64,000 nucleotides of DNA. Source: Candidatus Beckwithbacteria bacterium GW2011_GWC1_49_16. Lineage in GTDB: Bacteria > Patescibacteriota > Microgenomatia > UBA1400 > CG1-02-47-37. Position numbers and translations under genes: made by a program. The stretch is from the NCBI GenBank assembly GCA_001029675.1, contig CP011210.1:948891-1012890 (forward strand). The letters are read 5' to 3'. Under the pieces are notes generated by a model. The model searched no databases. It saw only the letters and a list, made by a program, of their open reading frames with translations, and was not told the origin of the DNA. Shown here in pieces: positions 6,830 to 61,248 of the stretch. Numbering within the stretch: the stretch's first letter is position 1; each line of letters begins with the position of its first letter.

Positions 6830-8068
6830 TTACTTCCAGGTCGGCAGCCAAAACCAATACTTAACCAAGTTTTTGGGGAGATGGACGGCGGTGTTAATTG
6901 GATAGAAGAAAAGAAAAAGAGCTACGACGATAGTCGTGTAGTAGATGATTAGTAGGCGACCTCGCTGGGGCGAGGTTTTTTGAAAGTCAATTAGCGCCCA
7001 GGCAATAATGATGGTAAGTAAGGATAGGGCCGGTAGGTAGTGGTGTAAGAAAAGAATTCTGGGGGAGAAAGACCAAGGCAACCAAAGAAGAAAATAACTG
7101 ACAAGAAGGTAGATCGTTGATCGTTGATGGCGGTAGAGGGCGTAGATCACGGCCACCAGTCCGCCCCAGAAAACGGCCGGGTTGCCCAGGTTATAAATGT
7201 TGGCGATGGTGTCTTTAGCATAGTCGACGTAAAACCAAACGGGACGAGCCAAAAGCGGCCACGTAAGGGCGGCGGTTTGGTAGTCGTGGGTGGCGGAAAG
7301 ACCGGTTTGGTACCAATAGATTTGCTGGTGGAGGTGGTAAAAGTCGATTAAGCTGTGGCCTTGAGCGAAAAACTGAAGGTAGGAAAGAAAGTAAATGACC
7401 ACAGGAATAATCAGTAAACTGTAAACCGTAATCAGTAACTTTTTAGGATTGGTAATTAAAACTTTTAGTTGGGGTAAAAGAAAAACGGCAAAGATGGGGT
7501 AGATGGCTAGGGCGGAGTGCTTGGTGGCAAGAGCCAAGCCGGTAAAGATGCCGGTGAGATAAAGATGTTTTAAGGTCCGACCTTTAAGAGCACGGTAAAA
7601 AAAGGTCAGCGCCAAAAGCATAAAGGTGGTGACGAAGATGTCGTTCATGGTGATTCTGGACATGGTGAGAGCGAGGCCGTCAAGCGAAAAAAAGGCGGCG
7701 GCCAAAAGCGACAGTTTAGGGTTTTTAAACAGGGCCTGGGCGAGAGTAAAAACCGCCGCCACGGCCAGGGTGCCGAAAAGGGCGCTGGGAAACCGCCAGG
7801 CAAAACTGTTATCGCCCAAAAGCTTGACCGAACCTGCCTGGATCAGTTTGGCCAGCGGCGGGTGAAGCCAATCATAAGCCGTCCCCTTTTCGGGGGGCTC
7901 GTGCCACCATTCGTAGCCGGCCGGATTATTTTCAGCGTGAGCCCGGACGGTGACGACATGATAGACTTCGTCAAAAACGTAGGCCGGCGGGATGCCAAGG
8001 CGGAAGACACGGACAACTAGGGTGAAAGTAAGTATTGCCCAAAATGCCTTGGTGTAAAATGACTTCAT
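6830..8068 (-). CDS. GT-C fold glycosyltransferase, PMT/ArnT-like (GT39/GT83 family)
   Basis: Polytopic membrane protein with a DE motif in the first periplasmic loop (YVFDEVYH). The start is probably the internal Met MKSFYTKAFW, which shares a CATG with the divergent gene at 8067. Confidence 0.6.
   Translation of the reverse strand: MKSFYTKAFWAILTFTLVVRVFRLGIPPAYVFDEVYHVVTVRAHAENNPAGYEWWHEPPEKGTAYDWLHPPLAKLIQAGSVKLLGDNSFAWRFPSALFGTLAVAAVFTLAQALFKNPKLSLLAAAFFSLDGLALTMSRITMNDIFVTTFMLLALTFFYRALKGRTLKHLYLTGIFTGLALATKHSALAIYPIFAVFLLPQLKVLITNPKKLLITVYSLLIIPVVIYFLSYLQFFAQGHSLIDFYHLHQQIYWYQTGLSATHDYQTAALTWPLLARPVWFYVDYAKDTIANIYNLGNPAVFWGGLVAVIYALYRHQRSTIYLLVSYFLLWLPWSFSPRILFLHHYLPALSLLTIIIAWALIDFQKTSPQRGRLLIIYYTTIVVALFLFFYPINTAVHLPKNLVKYWFWLPTWK
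7572..7584. repeat. Solo 13-mer AAGGTCCGACCTT inside the PMT-like glycosyltransferase coding sequence
   Basis: Exact 13/13 match to the repeat terminus, embedded as ...LKGRTLK... in the minus-strand protein. Confidence 0.7.
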
Positions 8069-9545
8069 GAGATTTATTGTAGCACTCACGTTTTGGGTAG
8101 TGGTATTTTGGTTAACTTTTAGCCAGACTATGTTCAGGCAAAATGACGGTGTTTTTGGCGCCTGCTCAAACTGCTGGGGCGATTGGTCGGCCCACACCAG
8201 CTACATGGCCTCGTTTGCCTTTGGGCGAAACTTTCCGCCCAGCTTACCGATTTTGGCCGGCGAAAAATTCAGCTATCCCTTTTTAGTGGATTTGATCACG
8301 GCCGGAGTGGTCAAGCTGGGAGTCGACTGGGTGAAAGCAATGGTGGCGGTCAGCTTAGTCACCGCGGTGGGGTTGGCGGGGGCGGTAATAGCTTTTGGCT
8401 GGAAGCTAACCGGTAAGTTTAAAATCGGGGTGGTAACGGCGCTGGTGTTTTTTTTAAACGGCGGCGTGGGCGAGTGGCAAAATCTTATTTCCTCCCAGGT
8501 CGTCCCCCAGCGGGGGCTGGCTCTGGGGATGACCATGGCCATCTGTGTCTACTGGTTGCTGTGGCAAAAGAAACTTTTTTGGGCGGGGGTGGTGGCAGGT
8601 TTGTTGCCGCTGGTTCACGCCCATTCGTTTATGGCGGTAGTCTTGGTGGCGGGGGGGCTAGGGGGCTGGCGAGTGATCAGAGCAAAAAATAAAACCAAGG
8701 AAATTTCAGCCTGGTTGGCTTTTGCTGTCCCGGCGTTGATTCTGGGCGGGGCGCAGGTGAGGTATTTTTACGCCGGGGTCTTGGGCCAAAACTTTGTCAG
8801 GTGGCAACCAGGCTGGCTGGCTGGCGGCGGCCTTTGGGGCTGGGCCTGGTTTTGGCTCAAAAACGCGGGGCTGGTCTTGGTTTTGGCAACAGCAGGCTGG
8901 TGGCTGGCTCCAAAAAATCTCCAGCGTTTTAGCCTGGTATTCTGGGGGTTGTTTTTTCTGGCTAACTTAGTCGTCTTTCAACCTTGGGATTGGGACAACA
9001 CTAAAATGTTGACCCACTGGCATTTAATGGCTTCGGTGCTGGCGGCCGGGGTAATCGTCAGGTTTTTTGACCATAAACGCTGGTTGGTAAAAATCTTAGG
9101 AGTGGGGGTGTTGGTTGCCAGTGTTTGGTTTGGATCGGTTAAGGTCGTGGCCATTGCCAAAGGGGAAAATCAGTATCGCTTTTGGGATAAAAACCAAATC
9201 GAAGCCGCGGCTTGGGTCAAAGACAATACCCCTCCCCGAGCAGTGTTTTTGACCGCTTCAAACCATGATCACTGGCTGCTTCCACTCACCGGCAGAAAAA
9301 TCGTCATCGGTTACCCGGGCTGGCTGTGGACTTACGGGCTTAACTACAGTCAGCGGGAAAAAGAAGTCGGAGAAATTTTTGGCGGCGGACAGACGGCAGA
9401 CAGCCTAATGGACAAATACCGGGTCGACTACGTCGTTTTAGGGCCGGAAGAAAAAAGACTCGACTCTATCAACCAGGAATATTTCCAAACCAAGTTGACT
9501 GAAGTTTACCAGCTTGAGGACTACCAAGTCTTTGCGGTCAACTAA
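8067..9545 (+). CDS. Polytopic integral membrane protein with C-terminal soluble domain (putative GT-C-type glycosyltransferase)
   Basis: About 11 predicted TM helices followed by a ~130-aa soluble C-terminal domain; sits in the glycosyltransferase neighbourhood. Confidence 0.4.
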   Translation: MRFIVALTFWVVVFWLTFSQTMFRQNDGVFGACSNCWGDWSAHTSYMASFAFGRNFPPSLPILAGEKFSYPFLVDLITAGVVKLGVDWVKAMVAVSLVTAVGLAGAVIAFGWKLTGKFKIGVVTALVFFLNGGVGEWQNLISSQVVPQRGLALGMTMAICVYWLLWQKKLFWAGVVAGLLPLVHAHSFMAVVLVAGGLGGWRVIRAKNKTKEISAWLAFAVPALILGGAQVRYFYAGVLGQNFVRWQPGWLAGGGLWGWAWFWLKNAGLVLVLATAGWWLAPKNLQRFSLVFWGLFFLANLVVFQPWDWDNTKMLTHWHLMASVLAAGVIVRFFDHKRWLVKILGVGVLVASVWFGSVKVVAIAKGENQYRFWDKNQIEAAAWVKDNTPPRAVFLTASNHDHWLLPLTGRKIVIGYPGWLWTYGLNYSQREKEVGEIFGGGQTADSLMDKYRVDYVVLGPEEKRLDSINQEYFQTKLTEVYQLEDYQVFAVN

Positions 9546-15644: not shown

Positions 15645-16102
15645 TGATTGTGGCCTTGGAAAACATCAGGAGTCTTTATAACGTCGGGGCGATTTTAAGA
15701 AGCGCCAGCTTTTTTGGAGTGAGCGAGGTATTTTTGGTGGGGGTAACGGGGTCGAGGAAAATCGGCGGCCAAAGGTGGCTTCACGAAGGGTTAGCCAAAA
15801 CCGCTTTGGGAGCAGAATGGCAGTTACAGATCAAAATCTTGAAAGACAGCCAGAAATTGATTGATCTTGCCAAGAAGAACGGTTTGAAACTGGTAGTAGT
15901 GGAGCAAACGGCGGGGGCAACTCCCCTGTCAAGCTTCCGGCCGGGCAAAAACATGGTCTTGGTCTTTGGCAACGAGGTAACTGGCGTCAGTCAAAAAGTT
16001 TTGGCGGCGGCAGACAAGGTGGTAGAAATCCCCCGACGGGGCAAAAAAACTTCTTTAAATGTCGCCGTGGCGGCCGGAATTGTTTTAAGTCGATTGGGGT
16101 AG
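15644..16102 (+). CDS. SpoU/TrmH-family RNA 2'-O-methyltransferase
   Basis: SPOUT motifs: LYNVGAILRSA...LVFGNEVTGVS...SLNVAVAAGIVL. Confidence 0.8.
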   Translation: MIVALENIRSLYNVGAILRSASFFGVSEVFLVGVTGSRKIGGQRWLHEGLAKTALGAEWQLQIKILKDSQKLIDLAKKNGLKLVVVEQTAGATPLSSFRPGKNMVLVFGNEVTGVSQKVLAAADKVVEIPRRGKKTSLNVAVAAGIVLSRLG

Positions 16103-19100
16103 GTCCTGCCTGTCGGTAGGCAGACCCAGGGGCCAGCAGTGGCGGCGGTATTCGCAGCGAAGACAATGGCGTTGATAGTCGGTGGTGCGGGCAAAGCGGT
16201 GGCGGCGAATGGCTTTCATCGAAGACTTGATGGTGGTCATCAATTTGGCTACCTGATCGTCTGGAATGTCAAAGCTTCGTTTGACAAACTTGGTCTTTTT
16301 TAGGCCGGACTCGACAAAATCCAGCTCGGCTTCTAAGACTTTGTAGCTTAGGCGCGGATCAGCAGCAAAAAGAAGCCTGTAGAAAACCAGCTGACGAAAA
16401 AGGTCGCCCGAAGAAGTTTTGGTCTGGCCCAAAATGTCGTTAGCGCTTTTAGTCGGCCCGGTTTTGTAGTCGGTGACCTTGATGGTCTTTTTGGTTTTAT
16501 CGATTAAATCAACCCGGTCGATTTTGCCGGATAAGGGGATGTCGTCCAGGTAGGGCTTGGAGTAAAAACCGCCAAAGCGCAATTCTACGGCCAACGGCTT
16601 GGTCATCTCTTGATGGTAGTAGCGGTAGTAGGCGGCAAGGGCGTTGACGCCTTTATCAATAAAATCGGCGTGTCTCACCGGAGTTAAAACTTCACTACCT
16701 AAAGCTTTCTTAAACTGGCTTAATAAAAATTCCTTGGCGGGCAAGCGGTTGGTTTTGAGGAAGCGGCGGTAGAATATTTCCAAAGCCTTATGGACGGCGG
16801 TGCCAAAAGATAAGTAGGCTTGTTTGGCCCGGGGGACACGAATGAGGTTGTTTAGCTTGAATTTATAGCTGCAGGCCAGATAGGTGTTTAGGGCCGTAGC
16901 CGAGAGTTTAAAGTCTTTTAAAATGAGGTTGAGAAAATCACTTTCTTTGACGGACGGGGTTACCTGGGGCAGGGGTTTTAAGAGTTTGGTTAGGGCCTGT
17001 TTGGCCTGTTTAGTTAATTGGGGTGAGACGGGTTCAAGGTATTTTTGAGGAATTTCGGAAACAAACATGGAGGGGACGGCTTCTTTGCCGGTGACGGAAC
17101 CCGAGTAGCGGTCGGCGTAAGTAACGCAGACTTTTTTGCGGGCGCGGGTTAGCCCCACGTAAAACAGCCGCCTTTCGTCTTCATTTTTCTCTTTTTTTTG
17201 AAGATCGGTGAAGCTTAAGATCCCTTGGGGAAGTTTGATTAACTCCCGGGTGCGGTTGTTGCCCCATTTTTTATCGATAGCCCGATAAATAAAGACGTAG
17301 TCCCATTCCCTCCCCTTGGCTTTGTGGACGGTAGATAGGGTGACGGCGTTGGTTTTTATGTCCAGATCCTGCTCGACGACGCTCAAACGGTTTTGTTCCA
17401 TCAACTCAAGGGCTTTAATGAAACCAACCAAGTTGAGGCTGTGGTCGGCTTGGTTTAAACTTTTGACCTCGGCAAAAAGCGAGTTTAAACGGTTTAGCTT
17501 TTCGACGCTATCGGGCAAAGTCTCGAGCCAGCTTAAAAACCCCGACTGCTTTAAAACCATTTCGAAAAACTGGCTGAAGGTTTTTTCGGCGTCCAGCTTT
17601 CTCCAATCAGAAAGCTTGCCAATAAACTTAGTGATTTTGGAGCCGGATTTGAGCTTTAATTTTTTAAATTGGGGCGAGAGAATAAAGTCCACCAGATTGG
17701 TGTCGGCTTGGGCGACGGCCCGGGAAAGTTTTAAGATATCCAGGGCGTCTAATTTCAAAAACTGATAGTTTAACAGGGTGAATAAATCAAGGTCGTCACC
17801 CGCGCCTCCGCCGGCGTCGCTGATCACTTTCAAAAGGAGCAAAAACTGGTTTACTACCGGGTCGATTAAGACGTTGCCGCCGCCTTCTATGTCCAAACTC
17901 ACCCCAAACTTGGTGAGCATTTCTGCCAGCGTCCCGGCGTCGGCGTTGTGGCGAAAAAGAACGGCGATACTCTCTGGTTTGGTACCTGATTTGATCAGCC
18001 GGTCTATCTCCCGGGCGAGCCAAAAGGTTTCCAGAGTTTCCGAAGGAAATCTGACCAAAGACAGCTTTTGCTCTTTGAATTTACCTTGGGATTTTAATGT
18101 GGTGGTGGCTTTTTTGAGCTGGAGCTGGTTTTTTTTGATGACGGCGGCGGAGGCATCCAGGATGGTTTGAGTGGAACGGTAGTTTTGCGCCAGTTCAATC
18201 ACTTGGGCTTGGGGGAAAAGATTGTTGAAGGCGATAAAGTTCTCGGTCGAAGCTCCTTGGAAGCGAAAAATTGAATTATGAACTACCACATTGTTGGCTA
18301 CAAAATTGTGGCTAGGCGGTACTTCCAAGTCATAAACATTGATGGTTTTTATTTTCTTCTCGCGTTTAATGACTTTATCGTAGATAACCTTATGCCTTCT
18401 AACCACAGGGAGGTAGTTGCCAACTAAAATATTGCCTGCTTGCATTATTCTTGAGGGGCGGTGCTGTATCCTGGTAGTTCCTAAAGGCGCCTTAATATCA
18501 ATAATTCCAGGGAGTTTTCTCTCAAGCTTTTCGGCAATTTTATACAATTGAGAGAAATCAGTGTTATTTAGTCTGAAGCCTTTACCGATATTTTTATTTC
18601 TAAGCTTAAATCCGAGCTTGTTAAGTTTTTTTATGATTTTTTTGTTTGAAGTTTGGATTCGTAGCTCATGAAGAATGGAGGGGGATTGTAGTAGTCCTTT
18701 TTTATCATATTTAGAGCGATAGTTTCTTGAACACATAACAAGGTTAATTTTGATTCTCCCGTCCCCCAAAGTGGTTGCATCTCGAATATAATGGGGTTGA
18801 TTAAGATTTACCCCGAGATCTTGAGCAAGTATGGCAGCATTTTTTTCTGTATCAAACTCTTGATACAGCTTTTTAAGCCACTTGCCAGTAATTGCGTTAT
18901 TTCTTTCTTGAAAAACAACCGTTGGGATTTTGTAGGTAAGCGATAAAACCATTTCACGGTATCTGGCTTCTGCTTCTGATTTGTGTGCTGACAGGCCAAT
19001 AATTTTATCGGCTCCTGCCTCAATTTTTAGTCTTACTGAAAGGCTTCTTGTAATGCCTAAACGCCAACCCAAGCTTTTTTTATACATGAGGTAAACATAC

Positions 19101-20185
19101 CAGATGTTAGTCATTTCTCTGGGCGGGATAAAACAGAACATTTTATGATTATCTGTAGTAGCTATTTTTTGACCTGACTCGGTTGTAAAAGTAATGAGCC
19201 TAACTTTTCTTTTTTGCTTGAAAACCCTTTTAACTTTAGCGTAAGAGGTGTAGCCTTTACCTACCGCGGTTAAAACTTCATCTCCGGCTTTAATCTTTTC
19301 GATGTTTTTAAGGCCTGATTTGGTGTTGATTTTGATGCCCGCCGGCAAACACTGGTTCGGGTCTCCGACAACAAAGACATTGGCCTGATCGCCCCAGTAG
19401 GAAGCCAGAAGTTGTAAAACCTGGTTTTGAGCCGAGTTGGTATCCTGGTACTCGTCAACTAAAAAATAAAGCAGGCGCTCCTGATGGGTTCTTAATATGT
19501 TGGTATCCTGCTTAAAAGCGACTGCCACAAAATTGATCATGTCTTCAAAGTCATAGCGGCCTTTTTGGGCGAGTAACTTTTGGTAGGTTTGATAAACCCG
19601 AGCCAGGTCGTAGTTTTTGTCCAGCGTTTTTCTAGCGTTTAATAAGGCGGTGGCGGAAAGTTTGTTCTTCTCTTTTACCAACGAGGCTTTCTCTTTTTTG
19701 ACGATGGCGGCAAAAGTGATCGGGCTGACGGCTTCTCTTTTGAGGTCTTTTATTGATTCTATTAGGCTTGGGGTGTAGTAGAGGGGCGAGTTGGCCGGCT
19801 TGATAGCTTTAAAACGGCCGTGAGACAAAATCTGGTTAAAAATATCCACCCTTTCCAGTTCGGAAAGAGGCTCAAGATTCAAAGAAATGGCAAAGCGGTC
19901 GGCAAATTCCTGGATGACCGAGGAGCAAAAAGAGTGAAAAGTGGAGATATTAACGTAATAGGCCGGTTGGCCGATAGTGGCAAGTAGCCTCTGGCGCATC
20001 TCTCTGGCGCCGGATTCGGTAAAAGTTAAAGCCAAAATGCCGTCGGGGGGAGTGTCGGTTTTTTTCAAGATGTAAGCGATGCGCTCGGCGATGATCTGGG
20101 TTTTGCCGGTGCCGGGGCCGGCGATGACCATGACCGGGCCTTCGATGGTAGTGACGGCTTTAACTTGGGCCGGGTTTAGCTTCAT
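16085..20185 (-). CDS. UvrD-family helicase fused to a C-terminal Cas4/RecB-like PD-(D/E)xK nuclease with a four-Cys cluster, interrupted by an intein
   Basis: N-terminal Walker A AGPGTGKT and DEYQDTN. Motif III is split (VVGDPNQ | intein | SIFRFQGAS). The C-terminal nuclease carries Cys residues at YLACSYKF and CLRCEYRRHC. Confidence 0.8.
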   Translation of the reverse strand: MKLNPAQVKAVTTIEGPVMVIAGPGTGKTQIIAERIAYILKKTDTPPDGILALTFTESGAREMRQRLLATIGQPAYYVNISTFHSFCSSVIQEFADRFAISLNLEPLSELERVDIFNQILSHGRFKAIKPANSPLYYTPSLIESIKDLKREAVSPITFAAIVKKEKASLVKEKNKLSATALLNARKTLDKNYDLARVYQTYQKLLAQKGRYDFEDMINFVAVAFKQDTNILRTHQERLLYFLVDEYQDTNSAQNQVLQLLASYWGDQANVFVVGDPNQCLPAGIKINTKSGLKNIEKIKAGDEVLTAVGKGYTSYAKVKRVFKQKRKVRLITFTTESGQKIATTDNHKMFCFIPPREMTNIWYVYLMYKKSLGWRLGITRSLSVRLKIEAGADKIIGLSAHKSEAEARYREMVLSLTYKIPTVVFQERNNAITGKWLKKLYQEFDTEKNAAILAQDLGVNLNQPHYIRDATTLGDGRIKINLVMCSRNYRSKYDKKGLLQSPSILHELRIQTSNKKIIKKLNKLGFKLRNKNIGKGFRLNNTDFSQLYKIAEKLERKLPGIIDIKAPLGTTRIQHRPSRIMQAGNILVGNYLPVVRRHKVIYDKVIKREKKIKTINVYDLEVPPSHNFVANNVVVHNSIFRFQGASTENFIAFNNLFPQAQVIELAQNYRSTQTILDASAAVIKKNQLQLKKATTTLKSQGKFKEQKLSLVRFPSETLETFWLAREIDRLIKSGTKPESIAVLFRHNADAGTLAEMLTKFGVSLDIEGGGNVLIDPVVNQFLLLLKVISDAGGGAGDDLDLFTLLNYQFLKLDALDILKLSRAVAQADTNLVDFILSPQFKKLKLKSGSKITKFIGKLSDWRKLDAEKTFSQFFEMVLKQSGFLSWLETLPDSVEKLNRLNSLFAEVKSLNQADHSLNLVGFIKALELMEQNRLSVVEQDLDIKTNAVTLSTVHKAKGREWDYVFIYRAIDKKWGNNRTRELIKLPQGILSFTDLQKKEKNEDERRLFYVGLTRARKKVCVTYADRYSGSVTGKEAVPSMFVSEIPQKYLEPVSPQLTKQAKQALTKLLKPLPQVTPSVKESDFLNLILKDFKLSATALNTYLACSYKFKLNNLIRVPRAKQAYLSFGTAVHKALEIFYRRFLKTNRLPAKEFLLSQFKKALGSEVLTPVRHADFIDKGVNALAAYYRYYHQEMTKPLAVELRFGGFYSKPYLDDIPLSGKIDRVDLIDKTKKTIKVTDYKTGPTKSANDILGQTKTSSGDLFRQLVFYRLLFAADPRLSYKVLEAELDFVESGLKKTKFVKRSFDIPDDQVAKLMTTIKSSMKAIRRHRFARTTDYQRHCLRCEYRRHCWPLGLPTDRQDLPQST
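18275..19351 (-). mobile_element. Intein (~359 aa) inserted in helicase motif III of the UvrD-family protein
   Basis: Starts with Cys (CLPAGIKINTKSG...). Block B TxxH is TTDNH, ~67 aa in. Block F/G is NVYDLEVPPSHNFVANNVVVHN followed by the +1 Ser. Removing it restores VGDPNQSIFRFQGAS. Confidence 0.8.
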
Positions 20186-24838: not shown

Positions 24839-25678
24839 ATGTTGGTAGATACCCATAATCATCTTAACTTTGAGGCGTTCGATAAGGACTGGGAAGCGGC
24901 GGTGAATAGGGCCAGCGAGGCCGGGGTAGGAAAAATGATAGTGGTGGGGACGGATATTGATACCAGCCTTAAAGCGATTGCCATGGCCAAACAAAGAAAA
25001 ACGCTTTGGGCCACGGTCGGATTTCATCCCCACCACGTTAAAGCCTTAATTAAACTCCCCTACGCCAGGGTACAGCTGGCGCAAATTACCGACCAGTTGA
25101 AGAAAATGGCCCGAGGTAAACAGGTGGTGGCGGTGGGAGAATGCGGCCTGGATTATCACACTTACCAAAACAGTCGGCATAAACACCCGGACAACGGCCG
25201 GGACTGGGAGAAACTGAAAGACTTACAAAAGCAGATATTTGGGATGCAGATAGAGTTGGCCCGAGAATTAAAGCTGCCTTTGGTGATTCACAACCGGGAA
25301 GCGGACATGGAGGTGTTGGATGCGATTGACCATTTTTGCAAAAAAGACGGCAATGTGCCCCGTGGGGTGCTCCATTGCATTTCGGGCAGCAGTGAGTTTT
25401 TAGAAAAAGGCCTTAACATGGGTTTTTATATCGGGGTTGACGGCAACGTCACTTATGACGGCAAGGTTAAGGCCTTGGCGAAAAAGATTCCTTTGGAGCG
25501 GCTGGTGGTCGAGACCGACTCGCCGTACCTCGCCCCTAAACCGCGACGACGGTTGAGGAATGAGCCGGCCAATGTTAAAATCGTGGCCGAGTTTCTGGCG
25601 AAACTTAAAAATATATCCAGAGAAAAACTAGAGCAGGCAACCACGAAAAACGCCGAAAGGTTATTTAATTTACACTAA
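24839..25678 (+). CDS. tatD: TatD family metal-dependent hydrolase/DNase
   Basis: MLVDTHNHL start and HxH...E...H...H...D arrangement. The ORF-track start at 24821 is probably an upstream extension. Confidence 0.8.
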   Translation: MLVDTHNHLNFEAFDKDWEAAVNRASEAGVGKMIVVGTDIDTSLKAIAMAKQRKTLWATVGFHPHHVKALIKLPYARVQLAQITDQLKKMARGKQVVAVGECGLDYHTYQNSRHKHPDNGRDWEKLKDLQKQIFGMQIELARELKLPLVIHNREADMEVLDAIDHFCKKDGNVPRGVLHCISGSSEFLEKGLNMGFYIGVDGNVTYDGKVKALAKKIPLERLVVETDSPYLAPKPRRRLRNEPANVKIVAEFLAKLKNISREKLEQATTKNAERLFNLH

Positions 25679-32047: not shown

Positions 32048-32119
32048 GGCCTAGTGGCGAAGAGGTAACGCGGCTGTCTGCAAAACAGCCATACGTCGGT
32101 TCGATTCCGACCTAGGCCT
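32048..32119 (+). tRNA. tRNA-Cys (anticodon GCA)
   Basis: 7-bp acceptor stem GGCCTAG/CTAGGCC, T-arm GTCGG-TTCGATT-CCGAC, and anticodon stem GCTGT/ACAGC with loop CTGCAAA. CCA is not encoded. Confidence 0.85.
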
Positions 32120-37861: not shown

Positions 37862-37917
37862 GGGCTGGTTAATCCCTGTTGACAAAAACTGCCACTTGTA
37901 ATAACATAGTTATTACT

Positions 37918-38160
37918 ATGCCCTACCAAAGTATTTTTAAAGCTGGTAACAGCAACGTGGTTACCATTCCGACCGAGTTAATGAAAGAGCTTAACTTAAA
38001 AATTGGCGAAAAGGTGGTGGTGGAAAAATCACCGGTCGGTCAGGGTTTCTTGGTTAAAAAGGCGCCATCAAAAAGACCTTATCAAGACGAAATGCTTCAG
38101 TGGTTTAAAATTTTTGTCAAAGAAAACGGCGCTATTTTAGATGAGCTGGCAGTACGTTGA
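37918..38160 (+). CDS. AbrB/MazE (SpoVT-AbrB) family antitoxin, Phd-position partner of Doc
   Basis: ...NSNVVTIPTELMKELNLKIGEKVVVE... is a swapped-hairpin AbrB-type motif. It overlaps the doc start. Confidence 0.6.
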   Translation: MPYQSIFKAGNSNVVTIPTELMKELNLKIGEKVVVEKSPVGQGFLVKKAPSKRPYQDEMLQWFKIFVKENGAILDELAVR

Positions 38161-38530
38161 TATCGGCGAGGTTTATACCATTCACCAACTGATAATCAAA
38201 AGGGCTGGGACGAAGGCAAGCATCAGAGATTTTACTCTTCTTCACTCGGCAGTGGAGCGACCAAAAGCCAGCTTTGCTGGAAAAGATTTATACGCCAGTG
38301 TCTATACCAAAGCGGCGGCTTTGCTCCAATCCCTGTGTTTAAATCACCCCTTTAGTGACGGCAATAAACGGACTGCTTGGGCTACCACTCATCGCTTTTT
38401 ATGGAAAAACAAATGTCACTTAAAGGCTAAAACCAAAGACGCGATTGAGTTTATGATTTTTGTTGACATCAAAAAACCGCCACTCGAGGTTATCGCGGCG
38501 TGGCTAAAACAAAGAACTAAGAAATTTTAA
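38141..38530 (+). CDS. doc: Doc (death-on-curing) toxin, Fic/Doc family
   Basis: [13 protein letters not shown] is the Doc signature HxFx(D/N)GNKR. Confidence 0.8.
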
Positions 38531-39296: not shown

Positions 39297-39750
39297 AAGT
39301 AATATCTAAGGGTTTGAGGTTGAGGCGTCGGTAAAATTTGATGGCGCGGGTGTTTTTATAATAGCAGTTCACCTGGAGAGTGCGGAGGTTGTTTTGGCGA
39401 CACCAACTTTTAAAAGCGGCAATGAGCCTGGCGCCTACTTTTTGAGATCGGTACTGGGGGAGAACGCCGATGTTTTCCAGCTCGGCTACGCTTCTAGTGC
39501 GATAAAAAAATGCTTTCTTTTTGCCGTTGAGGTAGCCCGCTGGTTTTCCGTCAATTTCGGCGATTAAGCAGCAGAATTTTTTATCCGAGGTAATTTCTTT
39601 TAAATATTTTGTCCCTGCGCGGGTAAACTCCCAGTCTGGATTGAAAAAGGGGTCAAACCGGCTGTTGGCAGTAAAAATTTCGTGGTTTAATTTTTGAATT
39701 TTTTTCCAGTCTTTGAGCTTGGCTTTTCTGATTTTTACAGGAGGGCTCAT
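39280..39750 (-). CDS. GNAT family N-acetyltransferase
   Basis: ...[21 protein letters not shown]... CoA-binding motif. Confidence 0.7.
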
Positions 39751-41135
39751 TTAATTGATTGTAACATTTTGCTGGTAGAGACCCTTGGGTTGTGGGGTAA
39801 AACGACTTTGAGGCGGCCGCCTAATTTTTCCATGATGCGGCGTTTTTCTTTCTGGTTGGGGGTGCTGGCGGAGACGGCCAGGATGTCGGGGCGAATTTTT
39901 TTGATGAGGGCCTCGTGGGCGGCGGGAGAGAAAAATTTCTCCGGCAGGGCAAAGACTTGGTCGGCAATTTTCAAGCGGCGCAAGTTAATCAAGCGCCGGC
40001 TGATGGGGTTGATCGGCCGACCCGGGCCCTTAAGCAGGCTAACCCGGGTGTCGGACTCGACGCCGACTAATAAAATGTCGCCCTGTTTTTTGGCGGCCTT
40101 TAAAAATTTTACGTGTTCTGGATGGAGAATATCGAAAACGCCGGTGGCGAGAACTTTTCCTCTTTCCTTCCCAATAAGGTCCGACCTTTCGCCTGCCGGC
40201 GAGCCCTTCTCGGCTGGCAGCCGGGAATTCCTGTTAAGGTCGGACCTTGATAGCCTAGACAGACGCTGGCGGTATTTTTTCATGACGATTTGGCCGGTGG
40301 GGCGGGGGTGAAAAAAGGCCTGGTGGGGGCCTACCCTTTCGCGGGTAATTTTTGGCTTCATGTACCAAAGTTGGAGGCGGAAGGCGAAGGACTCCAACCA
40401 ATCAATAAGGTCTGACCTTCCCCGATGTGACTTCGGGGGCACCTTCTCGGCTTGCAGCCGGGAATTCCTGTTAAGGTCAGACCTTTGTAAGCGAAAAGAG
40501 TTCGGGAGAAAGCGGGTTACCCAAGAATTGGAGGCAATAAATTTTTGGTAAGTGCCATCTTTGTTAATCAAGGGTTTGACTTGAGCCACTTCGTGGGCGG
40601 TGTAAAGGTTGCGACGAGAGGCGGGTACGGCCAAAGCCGATTCGTCCAGCCAGAGATTAAGACAAAGTTTGTCGGCCACCTCCGAGGAATCCATTCGGCC
40701 ACCTCGGAGGTGAGGAAACAATAAAATCGTTGCCAGCAAGCGGGTGAGCCAGAGGCGATTTTTTGAGGTAACCACCATCAAATCAATGTCGTCGTTTTTG
40801 TCGGCATTCTTCATGGCCAGAGCGCCGGTGACGGCGACCAGCCTGACCGTCGGAATCAGTTTTAACCAGCCGGCGACGCGGCGGGCTAACCTAAGCTTGG
40901 CGGCCGAGATTTGGGCGCGGCGGCGGCGGAGAGCCACTAAATGAGAACGGCCTTTGAGGTGGAAATATCGGCTGGTCTTTACTATAAGGTCCGACCCACC
41001 CTGCGGGTAAATAGCGCCTGCGGCGCTTTCCTTAATGGGTCGGACCTTTAAGTCGCCGGCTATCTGCCACCTAATAATTTCGCTAGCAGTCAGCGGGTAA
41101 TCAAAAATATCCGCGTAGGCGACGGTCTTAAACAT
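39747..41135 (-). CDS. Composite ORF: N-terminal minimal nucleotidyltransferase (Pol-beta-like) domain plus C-terminal RfaE-domain-II-like cytidylyl/adenylyltransferase, with three in-frame palindromic repeat insertions; may be two genes
   Basis: N-terminus YADIFDYPLT...GALAMKNADKNDDIDLMVV. C-terminus ...GVFDILHPEHVKFL...LLKGPGRPINP (cf. GxFDxxHxGH and KGPGRPVNP of HldE/RfaE). The repeats are translated as RSDLNRNSRL... Confidence 0.4.
   Translation of the reverse strand: MFKTVAYADIFDYPLTASEIIRWQIAGDLKVRPIKESAAGAIYPQGGSDLIVKTSRYFHLKGRSHLVALRRRRAQISAAKLRLARRVAGWLKLIPTVRLVAVTGALAMKNADKNDDIDLMVVTSKNRLWLTRLLATILLFPHLRGGRMDSSEVADKLCLNLWLDESALAVPASRRNLYTAHEVAQVKPLINKDGTYQKFIASNSWVTRFLPNSFRLQRSDLNRNSRLQAEKVPPKSHRGRSDLIDWLESFAFRLQLWYMKPKITRERVGPHQAFFHPRPTGQIVMKKYRQRLSRLSRSDLNRNSRLPAEKGSPAGERSDLIGKERGKVLATGVFDILHPEHVKFLKAAKKQGDILLVGVESDTRVSLLKGPGRPINPISRRLINLRRLKIADQVFALPEKFFSPAAHEALIKKIRPDILAVSASTPNQKEKRRIMEKLGGRLKVVLPHNPRVSTSKMLQSIK
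40176..40248. repeat. Miniature palindromic repeat, copy a (AAGGTCCGACCTT ... AAGGTCGGACCTT)
   Basis: 13-bp terminal inverted repeats read directly. Its internal core is shared with copy b. Confidence 0.8.
40407..40485. repeat. Miniature palindromic repeat, copy b (AAGGTCTGACCTT ... AAGGTCAGACCTT)
   Basis: Shares a 45-bp core (cttctcggctKgcagccgggaattcctgttaaggtcRgacctt) with copy a at about 42/45 identity. Confidence 0.8.
40985..41048. repeat. Miniature palindromic repeat, copy c (AAGGTCCGACC ... GGGTCGGACCTT), with a different internal segment
   Basis: The same terminal inverted-repeat motif bounds a distinct ~40-bp internal sequence, which is itself a palindrome (ccctgcgg...gcgcctgcggcgc). 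Confidence 0.65.
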
Positions 41136-51216: not shown

Positions 51217-52164
51217 ATGAAGTTTAGGAAGATTTTGCTTCTAGACTACACCGGCAAAGAGCTGGAAAAGACATATTGGGAGAAGATCGCTAGATTGGCA
51301 GATAAGAAGGTTTTTCTTACTTCTAGTTCTAAAAACTTGGGGAAAGAATTGGTTGAAGCAGATGGAGTGTTGTTAAAGTTGGGGGCCAAATTTGGCCAGG
51401 ACTTAATGGATCAGGCGTCTAAGCTTAGGTACATTGGGATGCTGGGAACTGGAGTTGGTGGGGTTGACCTTAAGTATGCAACAAAGAAAAAAATTACTGT
51501 TTGTAATATTGCCGGCTATGCCACCGAGGGGGTGGCAGAATTTACTTTTGGGGCAATCATAGATTTTCTGAGAGAAATTGAGAGGGCCAAACAACAAGCG
51601 CGCCAAGGAGACTATTCCGAAGCGACTTTTGCCGGAACAGAAATTAAGGGCAAAAAGTTTGGAGTCATCGGCTTAGGAAGTATTGGCGCCAGAACGGCCG
51701 AGCTGGCTTTGGGGTTTGGGGCAAAAGTTTTCTACTGGTCAAGAAACAGAAAGAAAAATTACGAAAGAAAAAGAATAAAATACAGGACAATTGCTAACCT
51801 GCTAAAAGAGTCGGATATTATCACTCTTAATTTGGCGCTTAATCCAAAAACTAACGGGTTTTTGGGCCGAACAAGATTGAGCCTAATTAAGAAAGGGGCC
51901 TTACTGGTAAATCCAAGCCCGATGGAATTGATAGGTCTTAAGGCTTTGGTTTCAAGGCTCAAAAAGAAGGCAATTAGCTTTATATTAGACCACTCTGATG
52001 AGATGACTAAGGAACAATTAAGACTGCTTAAGCCTTACAAAAACTGTTTGATTTATCCCCCAATCGCCTACACCACCGAGGAAGCGACAGCTTTAAAAAA
52101 GGATATTTTTGTAGATAACCTGGAAAACTTTCTTAAAGGAAAGCCGAGTAATAAAGTAAATTAA
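51217..52164 (+). CDS. D-isomer-specific 2-hydroxyacid dehydrogenase (NAD-binding)
   Basis: GVIGLGSIGARTAELA Rossmann motif and catalytic R/E/H spacing. Confidence 0.75.
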   Translation: MKFRKILLLDYTGKELEKTYWEKIARLADKKVFLTSSSKNLGKELVEADGVLLKLGAKFGQDLMDQASKLRYIGMLGTGVGGVDLKYATKKKITVCNIAGYATEGVAEFTFGAIIDFLREIERAKQQARQGDYSEATFAGTEIKGKKFGVIGLGSIGARTAELALGFGAKVFYWSRNRKKNYERKRIKYRTIANLLKESDIITLNLALNPKTNGFLGRTRLSLIKKGALLVNPSPMELIGLKALVSRLKKKAISFILDHSDEMTKEQLRLLKPYKNCLIYPPIAYTTEEATALKKDIFVDNLENFLKGKPSNKVN

Positions 52165-52174
52165 AGTTGCCCCT

Positions 52175-52244
52175 AAGGACAGACCTTCCAGCTTCGCTGT
52201 CCCGGCTTGGCCGTTGGCCACGCCTCCTGTTAAGGTCTGGCCTT
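52175..52244. repeat. Degenerate copy of the same repeat family in the valS 5' leader
   Basis: AAGGACAGACCTTcc...cctgttAAGGTCTGGCCTT; it shares cctgttaaggtc with copies a/b and gaccttcc with copy b. Confidence 0.6.
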
Positions 52245-52262
52245 ATTGGCTATAATACTGCC

Positions 52263-54494
52263 ATGGATAAGCGTTACCAGCCGGACCTGTTTGAGGATAA
52301 AATTTATCGAGACTGGGAGAAGTCGGGGACTTTTACCCCCAAGGCTAAAGGCGAGGCCTACTCGATCATCATGCCGCCGCCAAATGCCAACGATCCGCTT
52401 CATATCGGCCACGCCTGTTTTGTCACTTTAGAGGACATCTACGCCAGGTTTGAAAGGATGCGGGGCAAATCGGTTTTGTGGCTGCCGGGGACAGACCATG
52501 CCGGCATCGAAACCCAGTACGTCTTTGAAAAACGCTTGAAAAAAGAGGGTAAGAGCCGATTTGATTTTGACCGGGGAACTCTCTACCGGATGATTTGGGA
52601 TTACGTTGAGGAAAACTCGGGAACGGCGATAAAACAGATGAAAAAATTGGGGGCAAGCGCCGATTGGAGCCGGACCAAGTTTACTTTAGATAAAGACGTG
52701 GTCGCGATGGTGGTGGACACTTTCAAAAAACTCTACGATGACGGCTTGGTGTACCGGGAAGTGCGCTTGGTTAACTACTGTACTTCTTGCGGCACGGCCT
52801 TCTCTAACCTGGAGGTGAAGCACGTCGAAAGAGTAAGTCCCCTTTACTACATGAAGTACGGGCCGTTTACCCTGGCGACCACCAGGCCGGAGACCAAGTT
52901 CGGTGATACGGCCATCGAGGTTCACCCCGACGACAAACGTTACCAAAAATGGATCGGCCAAGAAGTCGAGGTCAAAGGTTTGGCGGGTAAGTTCAAGATG
53001 CGGGTGATTGCCGACAGAAGAGTAGACCGGAAGTTTGGCACCGGGGTGGTCAAGGTGACGCCGGCTCACGACTTTAATGATTTTGACGTTTACCTCAAAC
53101 ACAAGAAAGAGGTGCCGGGGCCAAAGCAGGTCATCGGCTTTGACGGCCGGATGAACCAGCTTGCCGGAAAGTACCAAGGACTAAAGGTGATGGAGGCAAG
53201 AAAAGCGGTGGTGGCCGACTTGACCAAGCGGGGCTTAATGGAAAAGGTGGATGAAACCTACCGGAATACCATCGGCGTCTGTTACCGCTGTGGCACAACG
53301 ATCGAGCCTTTACCCCTGCCCCAGTTTTATATCAAGGTAAAACCCCTAACCCAAAGGGCTTTGCGGGCATTAAAAGAGAAAAAAGTGAAGATCTTTGGCG
53401 CCGGCTACGACAAAATTTTGAACCACTGGCTCAAGAGCCTTGACGACTGGAACGTCAGCCGCCAAATCGTTTGGGGCATTCGCTTGCCTATATGGTATGA
53501 GGCTGATAAAAATCCGGAGGTTGAAGTTAAGTTTTTGAACAAAGACAAAAAACTCATAAGCGACCAGGTGGGCGAGTTGTTGAAAAATTATTCGTTGGCA
53601 GAGATAAAACGGGGCTTGCAAAGCCTGCGGGCGCCGCTCACGGCCAAGTTTACCGTCTCCCCTACCTCGCCGGGAGAAAATTTCCTCCAAGAAACCGATA
53701 CCTTTGACACTTGGTTTTCCAGTTCCCAGTGGCCGTTGGTTACCCTGAAGACAAGCAGATTTAAAGATGACTTTAAACGCTTTTACCCCACTAGCCTCAT
53801 GGAGACGGCTTACGACATTTTGATTTTCTGGGTGATGCGGATGCTTTTTATGGGACTTTACTTAACCGGCAAGGTACCTTTTGAAAAGGTTTATCTTCAC
53901 GGCTTGATCCGCGACGAAAAGGGGCAGAAGATGAGTAAGTCTAAGGGAAACGTGGTCGATCCGGTCGAGGTAATCCAAAAATACGGCGCCGACGCCTTAA
54001 GGATGGCTTTGGTAATTCGGTCAACGGCAGGCCGAGACAAAAACGTCGGCGACGATGATATCAGAGGCATGCGCAACTTGACTAACAAGATCTGGAATGC
54101 GGCCCGGTTTGTGATCGTGTCCAATAATACCCACTCAGAACACTCCCGGAGTGGGGTTGCGCCTGCGGCACACTCCGGGAGTGATAGCGACCTGAAAGAT
54201 GAAAAATTTAAGAAGGAGCTGTCCGGCGTGGTGAAGCAAATCACCGACCAGCTTGAAGCGATGAAGCCGGGGCTGGCGGCGGAAACGGTTTATTTCTACT
54301 TCTGGCACTGGTTTTGCGATGAATGTATTGAGCAGAACAAGCAGGGTAAAATTTCGCCACTAGCTTTGATCAAAGGTTTGCGGGTGTTTTTGAAGCTTTT
54401 ACATCCTTTTGTGCCGTTTGTAACCGAGGCAGTCTGGAGGCAGTTGCCCAAGACCGAGGAAAAATTACTGATTGGCGCCCAATGGCCCGCCTGA
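52263..54494 (+). CDS. valS: Valyl-tRNA synthetase
   Basis: PPPNANDPLHIGHA (HIGH), LPGTDHAGIETQ (the ValS hallmark) and KMSKSKGN. The start is taken at MDKRYQPD; the ORF-track start at 52167 reads through the palindromic repeat. Confidence 0.85.
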   Translation: MDKRYQPDLFEDKIYRDWEKSGTFTPKAKGEAYSIIMPPPNANDPLHIGHACFVTLEDIYARFERMRGKSVLWLPGTDHAGIETQYVFEKRLKKEGKSRFDFDRGTLYRMIWDYVEENSGTAIKQMKKLGASADWSRTKFTLDKDVVAMVVDTFKKLYDDGLVYREVRLVNYCTSCGTAFSNLEVKHVERVSPLYYMKYGPFTLATTRPETKFGDTAIEVHPDDKRYQKWIGQEVEVKGLAGKFKMRVIADRRVDRKFGTGVVKVTPAHDFNDFDVYLKHKKEVPGPKQVIGFDGRMNQLAGKYQGLKVMEARKAVVADLTKRGLMEKVDETYRNTIGVCYRCGTTIEPLPLPQFYIKVKPLTQRALRALKEKKVKIFGAGYDKILNHWLKSLDDWNVSRQIVWGIRLPIWYEADKNPEVEVKFLNKDKKLISDQVGELLKNYSLAEIKRGLQSLRAPLTAKFTVSPTSPGENFLQETDTFDTWFSSSQWPLVTLKTSRFKDDFKRFYPTSLMETAYDILIFWVMRMLFMGLYLTGKVPFEKVYLHGLIRDEKGQKMSKSKGNVVDPVEVIQKYGADALRMALVIRSTAGRDKNVGDDDIRGMRNLTNKIWNAARFVIVSNNTHSEHSRSGVAPAAHSGSDSDLKDEKFKKELSGVVKQITDQLEAMKPGLAAETVYFYFWHWFCDECIEQNKQGKISPLALIKGLRVFLKLLHPFVPFVTEAVWRQLPKTEEKLLIGAQWPA

Positions 54495-61162: not shown

Positions 61163-61199
61163 AATTTAGCCAAGTATATATTACTTTGCTTTTCCCAAC

Positions 61200-61212
61200 A
61201 AGGTCCGACCTT
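61200..61212. repeat. Solo 13-mer AAGGTCCGACCTT in the rpmH–dnaA intergenic (origin-proximal) region
   Basis: Exact match; it lies ~37 bp from a perfect DnaA box. Confidence 0.7.
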
Positions 61213-61248
61213 GTTGTTAATTTTCGTGTATTGTTGGTGTTGACGGGG

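Follow-up and report, generated by a model that had tools for sequence, protein, structure and literature searches.

REPINs, doublets of repetitive extragenic palindromic (REP) sequences that form hairpins, are defined by two inverted REPs and a spacer in which nothing but the potential to form a hairpin is conserved, and they flank the genes of REP-associated tyrosine transposases (RAYTs) (PMC3337134, PMC5581495). Most work on REPIN-RAYT systems concerns Pseudomonas and Enterobacteria, where they are described as extragenic and lineage-specific, with vertical inheritance (PMC5581495, PMC3337134). Here we analyzed a 70-nt inverted repeat, termed copy D, in a 64,000-nt stretch (the window) of the genome of Candidatus Beckwithbacteria bacterium GW2011_GWC1_49_16 (contig CP011210.1, positions 948,891 to 1,012,890), where it lies between a gene for a D-2-hydroxyacid dehydrogenase and valS, the gene for valyl-tRNA synthetase (ValRS). 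Copy D belongs to a family of palindromic repeats, forms a hairpin whose pairs covary, and carries a REP core that is associated with RAYT-like genes in other genomes; we infer that a RAYT is also present in the Beckwithbacteria genome and that it mobilised copy D. Taken together, these results make it likely that copy D is a REPIN of a REP/RAYT system and neither a part of the ValRS protein nor a regulator specific to valS.

The family resembles the REPIN/REP-RAYT systems of P. fluorescens SBW25 (GI-GIII) and E. coli (REP/BIME, TnpA-REP, PDB 4ER8) in its pair of inverted REPs, in a variable spacer that has kept its hairpins, in the occurrence of singlets and higher-order arrays, and in the fact that the same REP flanks a Y1/HUH gene best matching RAYT (PMC3337134, PMC5581495). 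However, the REP here has a length of only 13 nt, is perfectly palindromic around a free central base and has no obvious GTAG-like 5' tetranucleotide, and the spacer adds two hairpins, which results in a three-way junction. Furthermore, the core is common to many classes of Patescibacteria and to some metagenome-assembled genomes (MAGs) titled Verrucomicrobia, many copies are intragenic and in frame, and the transposases stay under the NCBIfam equivalog cut-off.

Copy D and its repeat family

The inverted repeat consists of the 13-mers AAGGACAGACCTT and AAGGTCTGGCCTT, which are complementary at 12 of 13 positions and enclose a 44-nt spacer within the 98-nt gap from the dehydrogenase stop codon to valS (Table 1); an inverted-repeat search (repeat I7) extended the complementarity of the arms to 19 nt at 84%. 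In its canonical orientation (REP-AACAGGA...REP) the element is read on the minus strand. The substitutions relative to the core AAGGTCNGACCTT, one in each arm, hit opposite bases of the same stem pair, so that the 13-bp stem contains one A.G mismatch, while only 1 of the 44 spacer positions deviates from the consensus of the subfamily to which copy D belongs. The repeat had previously been called a degenerate copy, which is true of the arms but not of the spacer. Both RNA and DNA folding predicted the 13-bp closing stem and two small hairpins, with RNA energies of -38.4 kcal/mol on the plus strand (z -3.5) and -40.6 kcal/mol on the minus strand, and DNA energies of -22.2 and -21.8 kcal/mol (z -5.1 and -3.8).

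In the window, the core with at most one mismatch occurs eight times, compared to 0.17 expected occurrences and a maximum of one in 100 shuffled sequences, which is far beyond chance. When a covariance model built from 17 members was run over the whole window with its filters off, exactly four doublets (copies A to D) were found together with two singlets and one marginal site; the doublets and singlets add up to 10 REP units in 64 kb. Copy D scored 74.7 bits on the minus strand (E ~1e-17) and 23.6 bits on the plus strand. The core counts and the model thus agree with the earlier proposal that it is a further member of the palindromic family at 40.1-41.1 kb. All four doublets fold into a 13-bp closing stem with two internal hairpins that is equally stable on both strands, as RNA or as DNA (z -3.4 to -5.5). 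The marginal match (25407-25476, 13 bits, E 0.4) is an inverted repeat in a TatD open reading frame (ORF), AAGGCCTTAAC...GTTAAGGCCTT, which resembles REP arms lacking the central TCNGA and may be due to chance or represent an old remnant.

Pairing was evaluated in 23 members of the superfamily formed by the A-, B- and D-type copies. In their alignment, which was fitted to the covariance model and therefore favours structure, and in which the members represent few subfamilies, 90.9% of the cells were paired, compared to 78.4% in shuffles and 23-53% with slid partners, and 17 of the 25 pairs had changed on both sides. The central N of the two arms was complementary in 21 of the 23 members and occurred in all four Watson-Crick combinations (GC7/UA6/CG5/AU3), and helices 1-3 contained almost no G-U pairs. 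Since both strands fold alike and the covariation is almost purely Watson-Crick, the pairing constraint points to a hairpin at the DNA level, either in single-stranded DNA or as a cruciform, rather than to a strand-specific RNA.

Outside the window, a scan of one genome per species with the pattern AAGGTCNGACCTT-N35-65-AAGGTCNGACCTT yielded 94 loci (L numbers), chosen solely for carrying a doublet. Judged by the record titles, these loci come mostly from Patescibacteria, or Candidate Phyla Radiation (CPR), lineages (Saccharibacteria, Woese-, Beckwith-, Chisholm-, Adler-, Kaiser-, Nealson- and Lloydbacteria, Microgenomates, Parcubacteria, Paceibacteria), and a few are titled otherwise (one Verrucomicrobia MAG with several contigs, Rubritalea, several "Pseudomonadales" MAGs, Okeania, Limnohabitans). 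The core may consequently not be confined to Patescibacteria, or bins such as the Verrucomicrobia-titled MAG and Rubritalea (L005) may be mislabelled. The 13-mer is sharply bounded and its flanks are not conserved; only the A/B/D superfamily shares an inner AACAGGA and an outer ATTGG. It is also rarer in long open frames than random positions are (44% versus 81%). No match to the doublet pattern was found in viral contigs, and the repeat is therefore not a phage feature. A metagenome scan for the signature of the A/B/D superfamily added 11 further loci, and no consistent direct duplication of a target site flanked the 19 members inspected.

The 70-nt D-type subfamily comprises copy D and the copies at L007 (identical to L109), L035, L100, L101, L102, L103, L106 and L093. 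Those at L007, L035, L101, L102 and L106 are ~85-93% identical to copy D and lie in flanks unrelated to the valS locus. The L007 copy lies at the 3' end of a trpR-like ORF, and in L007 and L102 the upstream ORF stops at a TAA inside the element.

The core also occurs in larger arrangements. In the Verrucomicrobia-titled MAG (L001, L010, L011, L013, L024, L052, L066, L068) many contigs carry it in arrays of ~79 nt, in which four units follow each other at a spacing of ~22 nt, and tandem 13-mer arrays were seen at L040 (7215-7305, period 26 nt), L079 (41-108, ~18 nt) and L094 (1817-1913, 21 nt).

Association of the REP core with a RAYT-like gene

For the transposase search, pairs of 13-mers 400-2600 nt apart were selected, and the longest open frame between them was subjected to motif, Pfam and NCBIfam scans. 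In at least 13 of the 94 loci, the 13-mers directly flank an ORF (e.g. L026 4717-5412, L056 480-1172) that encodes 215-250 aa, or 391 aa in L005, and has the HUH motif MPNHFHLL; most of these ORFs also contain the tyrosine motif YIHLNP. The usual layout is [doublet]-gene-[singlet]. All ten ORFs scanned, nine of them flanked by 13-mers and the tenth that of L100, passed the gathering cut-off of Pfam PF01797 (Y1_Tnp), and NCBIfam NF047646 (REP-associated tyrosine transposase) was the best match for all 11 ORFs tested and the sole match for most. Similarly, when a profile of eight transposase proteins was compared with the PDB, the first match was 4ER8 (TnpArep), with the HUH and tyrosine motifs aligned, followed by ISDra2 TnpA; a PDB search with a single RAYT-like ORF sequence returned nothing relevant. 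The 13-mer flanking a Y1/HUH gene, as seen in these other genomes, is the defining arrangement of REP/RAYT systems. For comparison, in a ~1-Mb genome we would expect, by our own estimate, fewer than 1% of 8-kb stretches to contain a single-copy gene by chance.

In the subfamily of copy D itself, the D-type doublet of L100 is situated ~360 nt upstream of a RAYT-like ORF (MPNHVHFVL...YYEHIIR...YIKINP). This ORF (923-1564) contains a fourfold tandem peptide (NAPTIG x4) between the HUH and tyrosine motifs.

In the mechanism that we propose, copy D would be a small non-autonomous mobile DNA whose two inverted REP palindromes surround the spacer, and the whole element could, when single-stranded, adopt a Y-shaped hairpin. 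The REP ends would be recognised by a RAYT (HUH/Y1, IS200 superfamily) whose gene would lie at another place in the genome, and this enzyme would most likely copy or move such elements in trans. Copy D would have landed in, or would have been kept in, the dehydrogenase-valS spacer, and any local effect would be a by-product: the stem-loop on the plus strand, 4-10 nt past the dehydrogenase stop, could protect the 3' end of the message or dampen read-through, as E. coli REPs are described to do. Such effects on mRNA stability are familiar by-products of REPs, and one exerted by copy D as an intercistronic hairpin is plausible in this secondary role.

Several observations weigh against the assignment of copy D to a REP/RAYT system. 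E. coli-type REPs carry a conserved 5' tetranucleotide of the GTAG type beside an imperfect palindrome, which is used for cleavage. The REP described here is a perfect palindrome that on its own can form only a 5-bp mini-hairpin, and a conserved flanking tetranucleotide was absent across the flanks of 284 13-mers. The scores with NF047646 (24-65 bits) lie under its 80-bit equivalog cut-off, and the match to 4ER8 is weak (E 0.025). Moreover, of the elements in the window, three out of four doublets and one out of two singlets lie inside genes, an atypical location for "extragenic" REPs. No transposase was detected in the 64-kb window, either by Pfam scans of ~50 ORFs or by a motif scan, and since the window holds no RAYT or other transposase gene, the enzyme link is one that we infer for the source genome. 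Likewise, the counts of transposase genes per genome are partial, as they come from genome fragments. The substituted positions of copy D are the two outermost half-sites of the element, and because both are mutated, the copy may no longer be mobilisable. Finally, an insertion at the valS junction is presumed, no empty-site allele having been found among relatives, the next of which are at most 67% identical.

The valS junction and alternative explanations

In the list of ORFs, valS (52167..54494) begins at a TTG 96 nt upstream of the ATG at 52263, as no stop codon interrupts the frame across the repeat. When the 743-aa protein that begins at this ATG was used as the query, thousands of ValRS sequences were matched, and in nearly all of the 60 best, whose N-termini were inspected, the protein begins at the corresponding Met with MDK/MEK..Y.....E..IY..WE, aligned to MDKRYQPDLFEDKIY; the 32-residue extension was found in none of them. 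The 32-codon TTG extension is thus an artefact of ORF listing, as the preliminary description had assumed, and because valS starts at ATG 52263, copy D is untranslated and intergenic. The same description had pointed to the absence of in-frame stops in the repeat. This is correct but unremarkable, since four of the six frames of copy D are open, which makes an open frame uninformative, and the frame of the extension runs through copy D in the orientation opposite to that used by the intragenic sister copies. For annotation, this means that the valS gene call should begin at 52263 and that long ORFs of these genomes can absorb REPINs at their ends.

A TATAAT hexamer precedes the valS ATG by 6 nt and follows the right arm of copy D at the same distance, and no Shine-Dalgarno sequence was found ahead of this ATG. 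The same geometry (TAGAAT, 6 nt, ATG of valS) recurs in a relative (L098, 2484-2503). The sequence suggests that TATAAT is a candidate -10 box of a leaderless valS mRNA, in which case the promoter would abut the right arm. Given the hexamer so close to an ATG without a Shine-Dalgarno sequence, copy D may lie ahead of the point where valS transcription starts and not in a leader. At the valS loci of three relatives (L096-L098), the intergenic gaps measure 7, 72 and 19 nt and contain no copy of the 13-mer core. The contig of the only ValRS with 100% identity (P0001, L095) starts within valS, and among complete ValRS sequences the highest identity is 67%. ENA sample ERZ27254852 contains an identical fragment of valS. 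In L098, valS and ruvC are divergent and directly adjacent, 19 nt apart, and in the window the dehydrogenase gene and copy D lie in between.

These data bear on several alternatives that place the function of the repeat at this locus. It is hardly conceivable that the repeat is translated from TTG 52167 as a 32-residue N-terminal extension of ValRS (peptide PLRTDLPASLSR...), even though the frame is open and copies A to C are read through inside another ORF, because the homologous proteins begin at the Met and the open frame is in any case uninformative. A 5' leader specific to valS, such as a T-box-like riboswitch or an attenuator sensing tRNA-Val, would fit a structured sequence directly upstream of an aminoacyl-tRNA synthetase gene, and the preliminary description had placed the repeat in the valS leader. 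However, Rfam holds no family matching the repeat, and no T-box or other leader was matched in 52140-52280, at the gathering threshold or at E<=10; at the gathering threshold the whole window contained only a tRNA (at 32048), and at E<=10 nothing credible was found in 40150-41080. Sister copies occur in contexts unrelated to synthetases, the valS gaps of the relatives, a comparison proposed at the outset, lack the core, and the TATAAT puts the repeat upstream of the likely transcription start, so that such a leader seems highly improbable to us and a role of this kind finds no support as the main explanation. It would also be conceivable that the two 13-mers are operator sites of a dimeric DNA-binding regulator that overlap the valS promoter, as each arm is itself palindromic, the right arm ends next to the TATAAT, and 13-mer arrays with periods of ~21-26 nt exist in other genomes. 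However, the 13-mers showed no positional link to -10-like boxes at 554 oriented sites, the motif often lies inside ORFs, and the covariation of the central N in the two arms is something that a pair of operators does not require. We regard operator sites as very unlikely, and find a better explanation of the motif in its association with transposase genes.

More weight has to be given to two further readings. Copy D might be a transcript-level element (terminator, attenuator or 3' stabiliser) that was retained at the dehydrogenase-valS junction for its function. Its stable plus-strand hairpin starts right behind the dehydrogenase gene, the hairpins of MITEs (miniature transposable elements with inverted repeats) can be terminator-like (PMC10969869), and E. 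coli REPs were reported to stabilise upstream mRNA, according to an entry in the reference list of PMC3337134. However, a scan of 51900-52500 found no plus-strand U-tract site of an intrinsic terminator at copy D, where the stem is followed by ATTGGCTATAAT, and the scan lends no support to the earlier suggestion of a terminator. The equal folding of both strands, the Watson-Crick covariation and the presence of the subfamily in unrelated contexts and orientations, with no copy before valS in relatives, also argue against this explanation, which we consider unlikely.

Copy D could alternatively derive, as a MITE or a palindrome-associated transposable element (PATE), from a multi-copy insertion sequence of the IS200/IS605 type, or from an insertion sequence of the DDE type whose terminal inverted repeats are 13 bp long, instead of depending on a single-copy, "domesticated" RAYT. 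A RAYT and an ordinary insertion sequence of the IS200 type can be told apart by the number of transposase copies per genome. The unit of doublet, Y1 transposase gene and singlet (~0.9 kb) could itself move, the transposase proteins also match NF033573 (IS200) weakly, and near-identical D-type and A-type copies in several MAGs suggest horizontal spread. MITEs such as Correia/NEMIS, ERIC, RUP and BOX are likewise short, non-coding, hairpin-forming and dispersed, and able to affect neighbouring transcripts (PMC10969869), and IS200/IS605-derived PATEs share the dependence on a Y1 HUH transposase, the hairpin-forming ends and a gene flanked by repeats. In contrast to MITEs, the family described here has neither a consistent target-site duplication nor a parent DDE insertion sequence, no DDE transposase was seen, and its associated enzyme is of the HUH/Y1 type, which acts on single-stranded hairpins and not on double-stranded inverted-repeat ends. 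In contrast to PATEs, the best profile match was always the RAYT and not the IS200 model, and the same palindrome is found on both sides of the gene in place of distinct left and right subterminal hairpins. In addition, there is one transposase gene per locus, and one MAG (CAYIHM: L002, L006, L016, L061) carries doublets on four contigs together with a single transposase gene. An origin from such insertion sequences therefore appears rather unlikely. A DNA-uptake sequence, an integron attC site, a tyrosine-recombinase core site and a ribozyme had also been considered as identities of the repeat and were dropped once the RAYT association appeared.

Table 1. Coordinates of the REP elements and neighbouring features in the window, and loci of other genomes in which 13-mers flank a transposase ORF
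Feature	Coordinates	Strand	Evidence or remark
TAA stop of the D-2-hydroxyacid dehydrogenase gene 51217..52164	52162..52164	+	10 nt before left arm
REPIN copy D, 70-nt D-type subfamily	52175..52244	-	Covariance model and alignment with L007, L035, L101, L102, L106
Left REP arm of copy D, AAGGACAGACCTT	52175..52187	.	1 mismatch (position 5, T to A) to core AAGGTCNGACCTT
Spacer of copy D, 44 nt, two small hairpins (CAGC-TTC-GCTG; GGC.TGGCC-GTT-GGCCA.GCC)	52188..52231	.	Folding, alignment
Right REP arm of copy D, AAGGTCTGGCCTT	52232..52244	.	1 mismatch (position 9, A to G) to core AAGGTCNGACCTT
TATAAT hexamer, 6 nt before valS ATG, 6 nt after right arm of copy D	52251..52256	+	Sequence
valS, true start ATG 52263	52263..54494	+	Homologue N-termini align to MDKRYQPDLFEDKIY
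REPIN copy A, 73 nt, in frame in ORF 39747..41135 as RSDLNRNSRLPAEKGSPAGERSDL	40176..40248	-	93.1 bits
REPIN copy B, 79 nt, in frame in ORF 39747..41135	40407..40485	-	79.3 bits
REPIN copy C, 63 nt, arms AAGGTCCGACCCA / TGGGTCGGACCTT, in frame near N-terminus of ORF 39747..41135	40986..41048	-	37.3 bits
REP singlet AAGGTCCGACCTT in PMT/GT39-like glycosyltransferase ORF 6830..8197, read as LKGRTLK	7572..7584	.	Core search
REP singlet in rnpA/rpmH-dnaA intergenic region, extending to 21-bp palindrome CAACAAGGTCCGACCTTGTTG	61200..61212 (palindrome 61195-61216)	.	Core search
Transposase ORFs flanked by 13-mers (other genomes)			L002, L005, L008, L026, L033, L037, L048, L056, L073, L074, L076, L082, L087

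Intragenic copies and REPINs in reduced genomes

The dehydrogenase ORF upstream of copy D matches Pfam 2-Hacid_dh and 2-Hacid_dh_C, and the rnpA/rpmH-dnaA intergenic region with the second singlet is probably the oriC region. The ORF that contains copies A, B and C in frame (462 aa, minus strand) encodes an N-terminal domain specific to the CPR and, after it, a cytidylyltransferase domain (CTP_transf_like). In an alignment of 17 homologues, the peptides derived from the repeats occupy the same variable loops and are present in some lineages and missing from others (e.g. RSDLNRNSRLQAEKGSPAGERSDL, RTLPNRNSRLPAEKGSPAGEG, GQSLTGDPAEGRVGTAKPEG, GPTLKF..). A-type copies in ORFs always encode RSDLNRNSRLQAEKGSPAGERSDL, and those in five more unrelated long ORFs (L058, L099, L105, L106, L035) all have the same orientation and frame. 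The peptides expected of intragenic REPINs are RSDLNRNSR / LQAEKGSPAGER. Searches for carriers of the A-type peptide returned two matches among 158 candidates with a doubled profile and four matches at E<=1e-3 with a 33-aa segment, the power of such short queries being low.

Further features were observed in the representative protein library, in this ORF and in the window. One protein of the representative library (P0246, 778 aa) contains seven separate stretches matching the A-type REPIN peptide. The 462-aa ORF also harbours a second small palindrome (40673-40712), CACCTCCGAGG ... CCTCGGAGGTG, with the near-direct repeat TCGGCCACCTC(C)GAGG, which encodes HLRGGRMDSSEVA; this insert is common to the homologues P0123 and P0124 and absent from the others, and it has no further copy in the window. 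Elsewhere, an AddA-like UvrD-helicase/PD-(D/E)XK nuclease ORF (16088-20185, minus strand, 1366 aa) contains an intein (Intein_splicing, Hint, residues ~277-637), and a MazE-like antitoxin ORF overlaps a Fic/Doc ORF (37879-38527) in what is likely a toxin-antitoxin pair adjoining groES/groEL.

The intragenic copies recall the Rickettsia palindromic elements (RPEs), which are in-frame palindromic repeats in unrelated genes of a reduced genome that add a conserved hydrophilic peptide (PMC10969869). RPEs differ in being ~100-150 bp long, Rickettsia-specific and without a known transposase, and unlike them copy D is intergenic and untranslated.

Our literature search found, in the library that it covered, no paper that contains the 13-mer or that links RAYTs, REPINs, MITEs or palindromic elements to the CPR. 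Copy D itself is an ordinary member of its family, and the novelty is in the family, which has the REPIN architecture in CPR genomes of reduced size, a compact 13-nt REP and frequent in-frame copies. On the present evidence the chances seem about even that the CPR hold an undescribed REPIN-RAYT system, with a 13-nt core across classes, subfamilies moving between distant genomes, and doublets that are routinely tolerated and probably translated in frame, always in one orientation and frame, as loops of 21-26 residues in housekeeping proteins. If this is true, a RAYT-driven element would generate variation in the protein loops of ultra-small genomes, as RPEs do in Rickettsia, and copy D would be an intergenic, slightly decayed member of that REPIN population. 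If confirmed, the family would serve as a tractable marker for DNA that moves within genomes and for horizontal exchange between lineages of the CPR, and it would represent a second independent case, after the RPEs of Rickettsia, of palindromic repeats reshaping proteins in reduced genomes.

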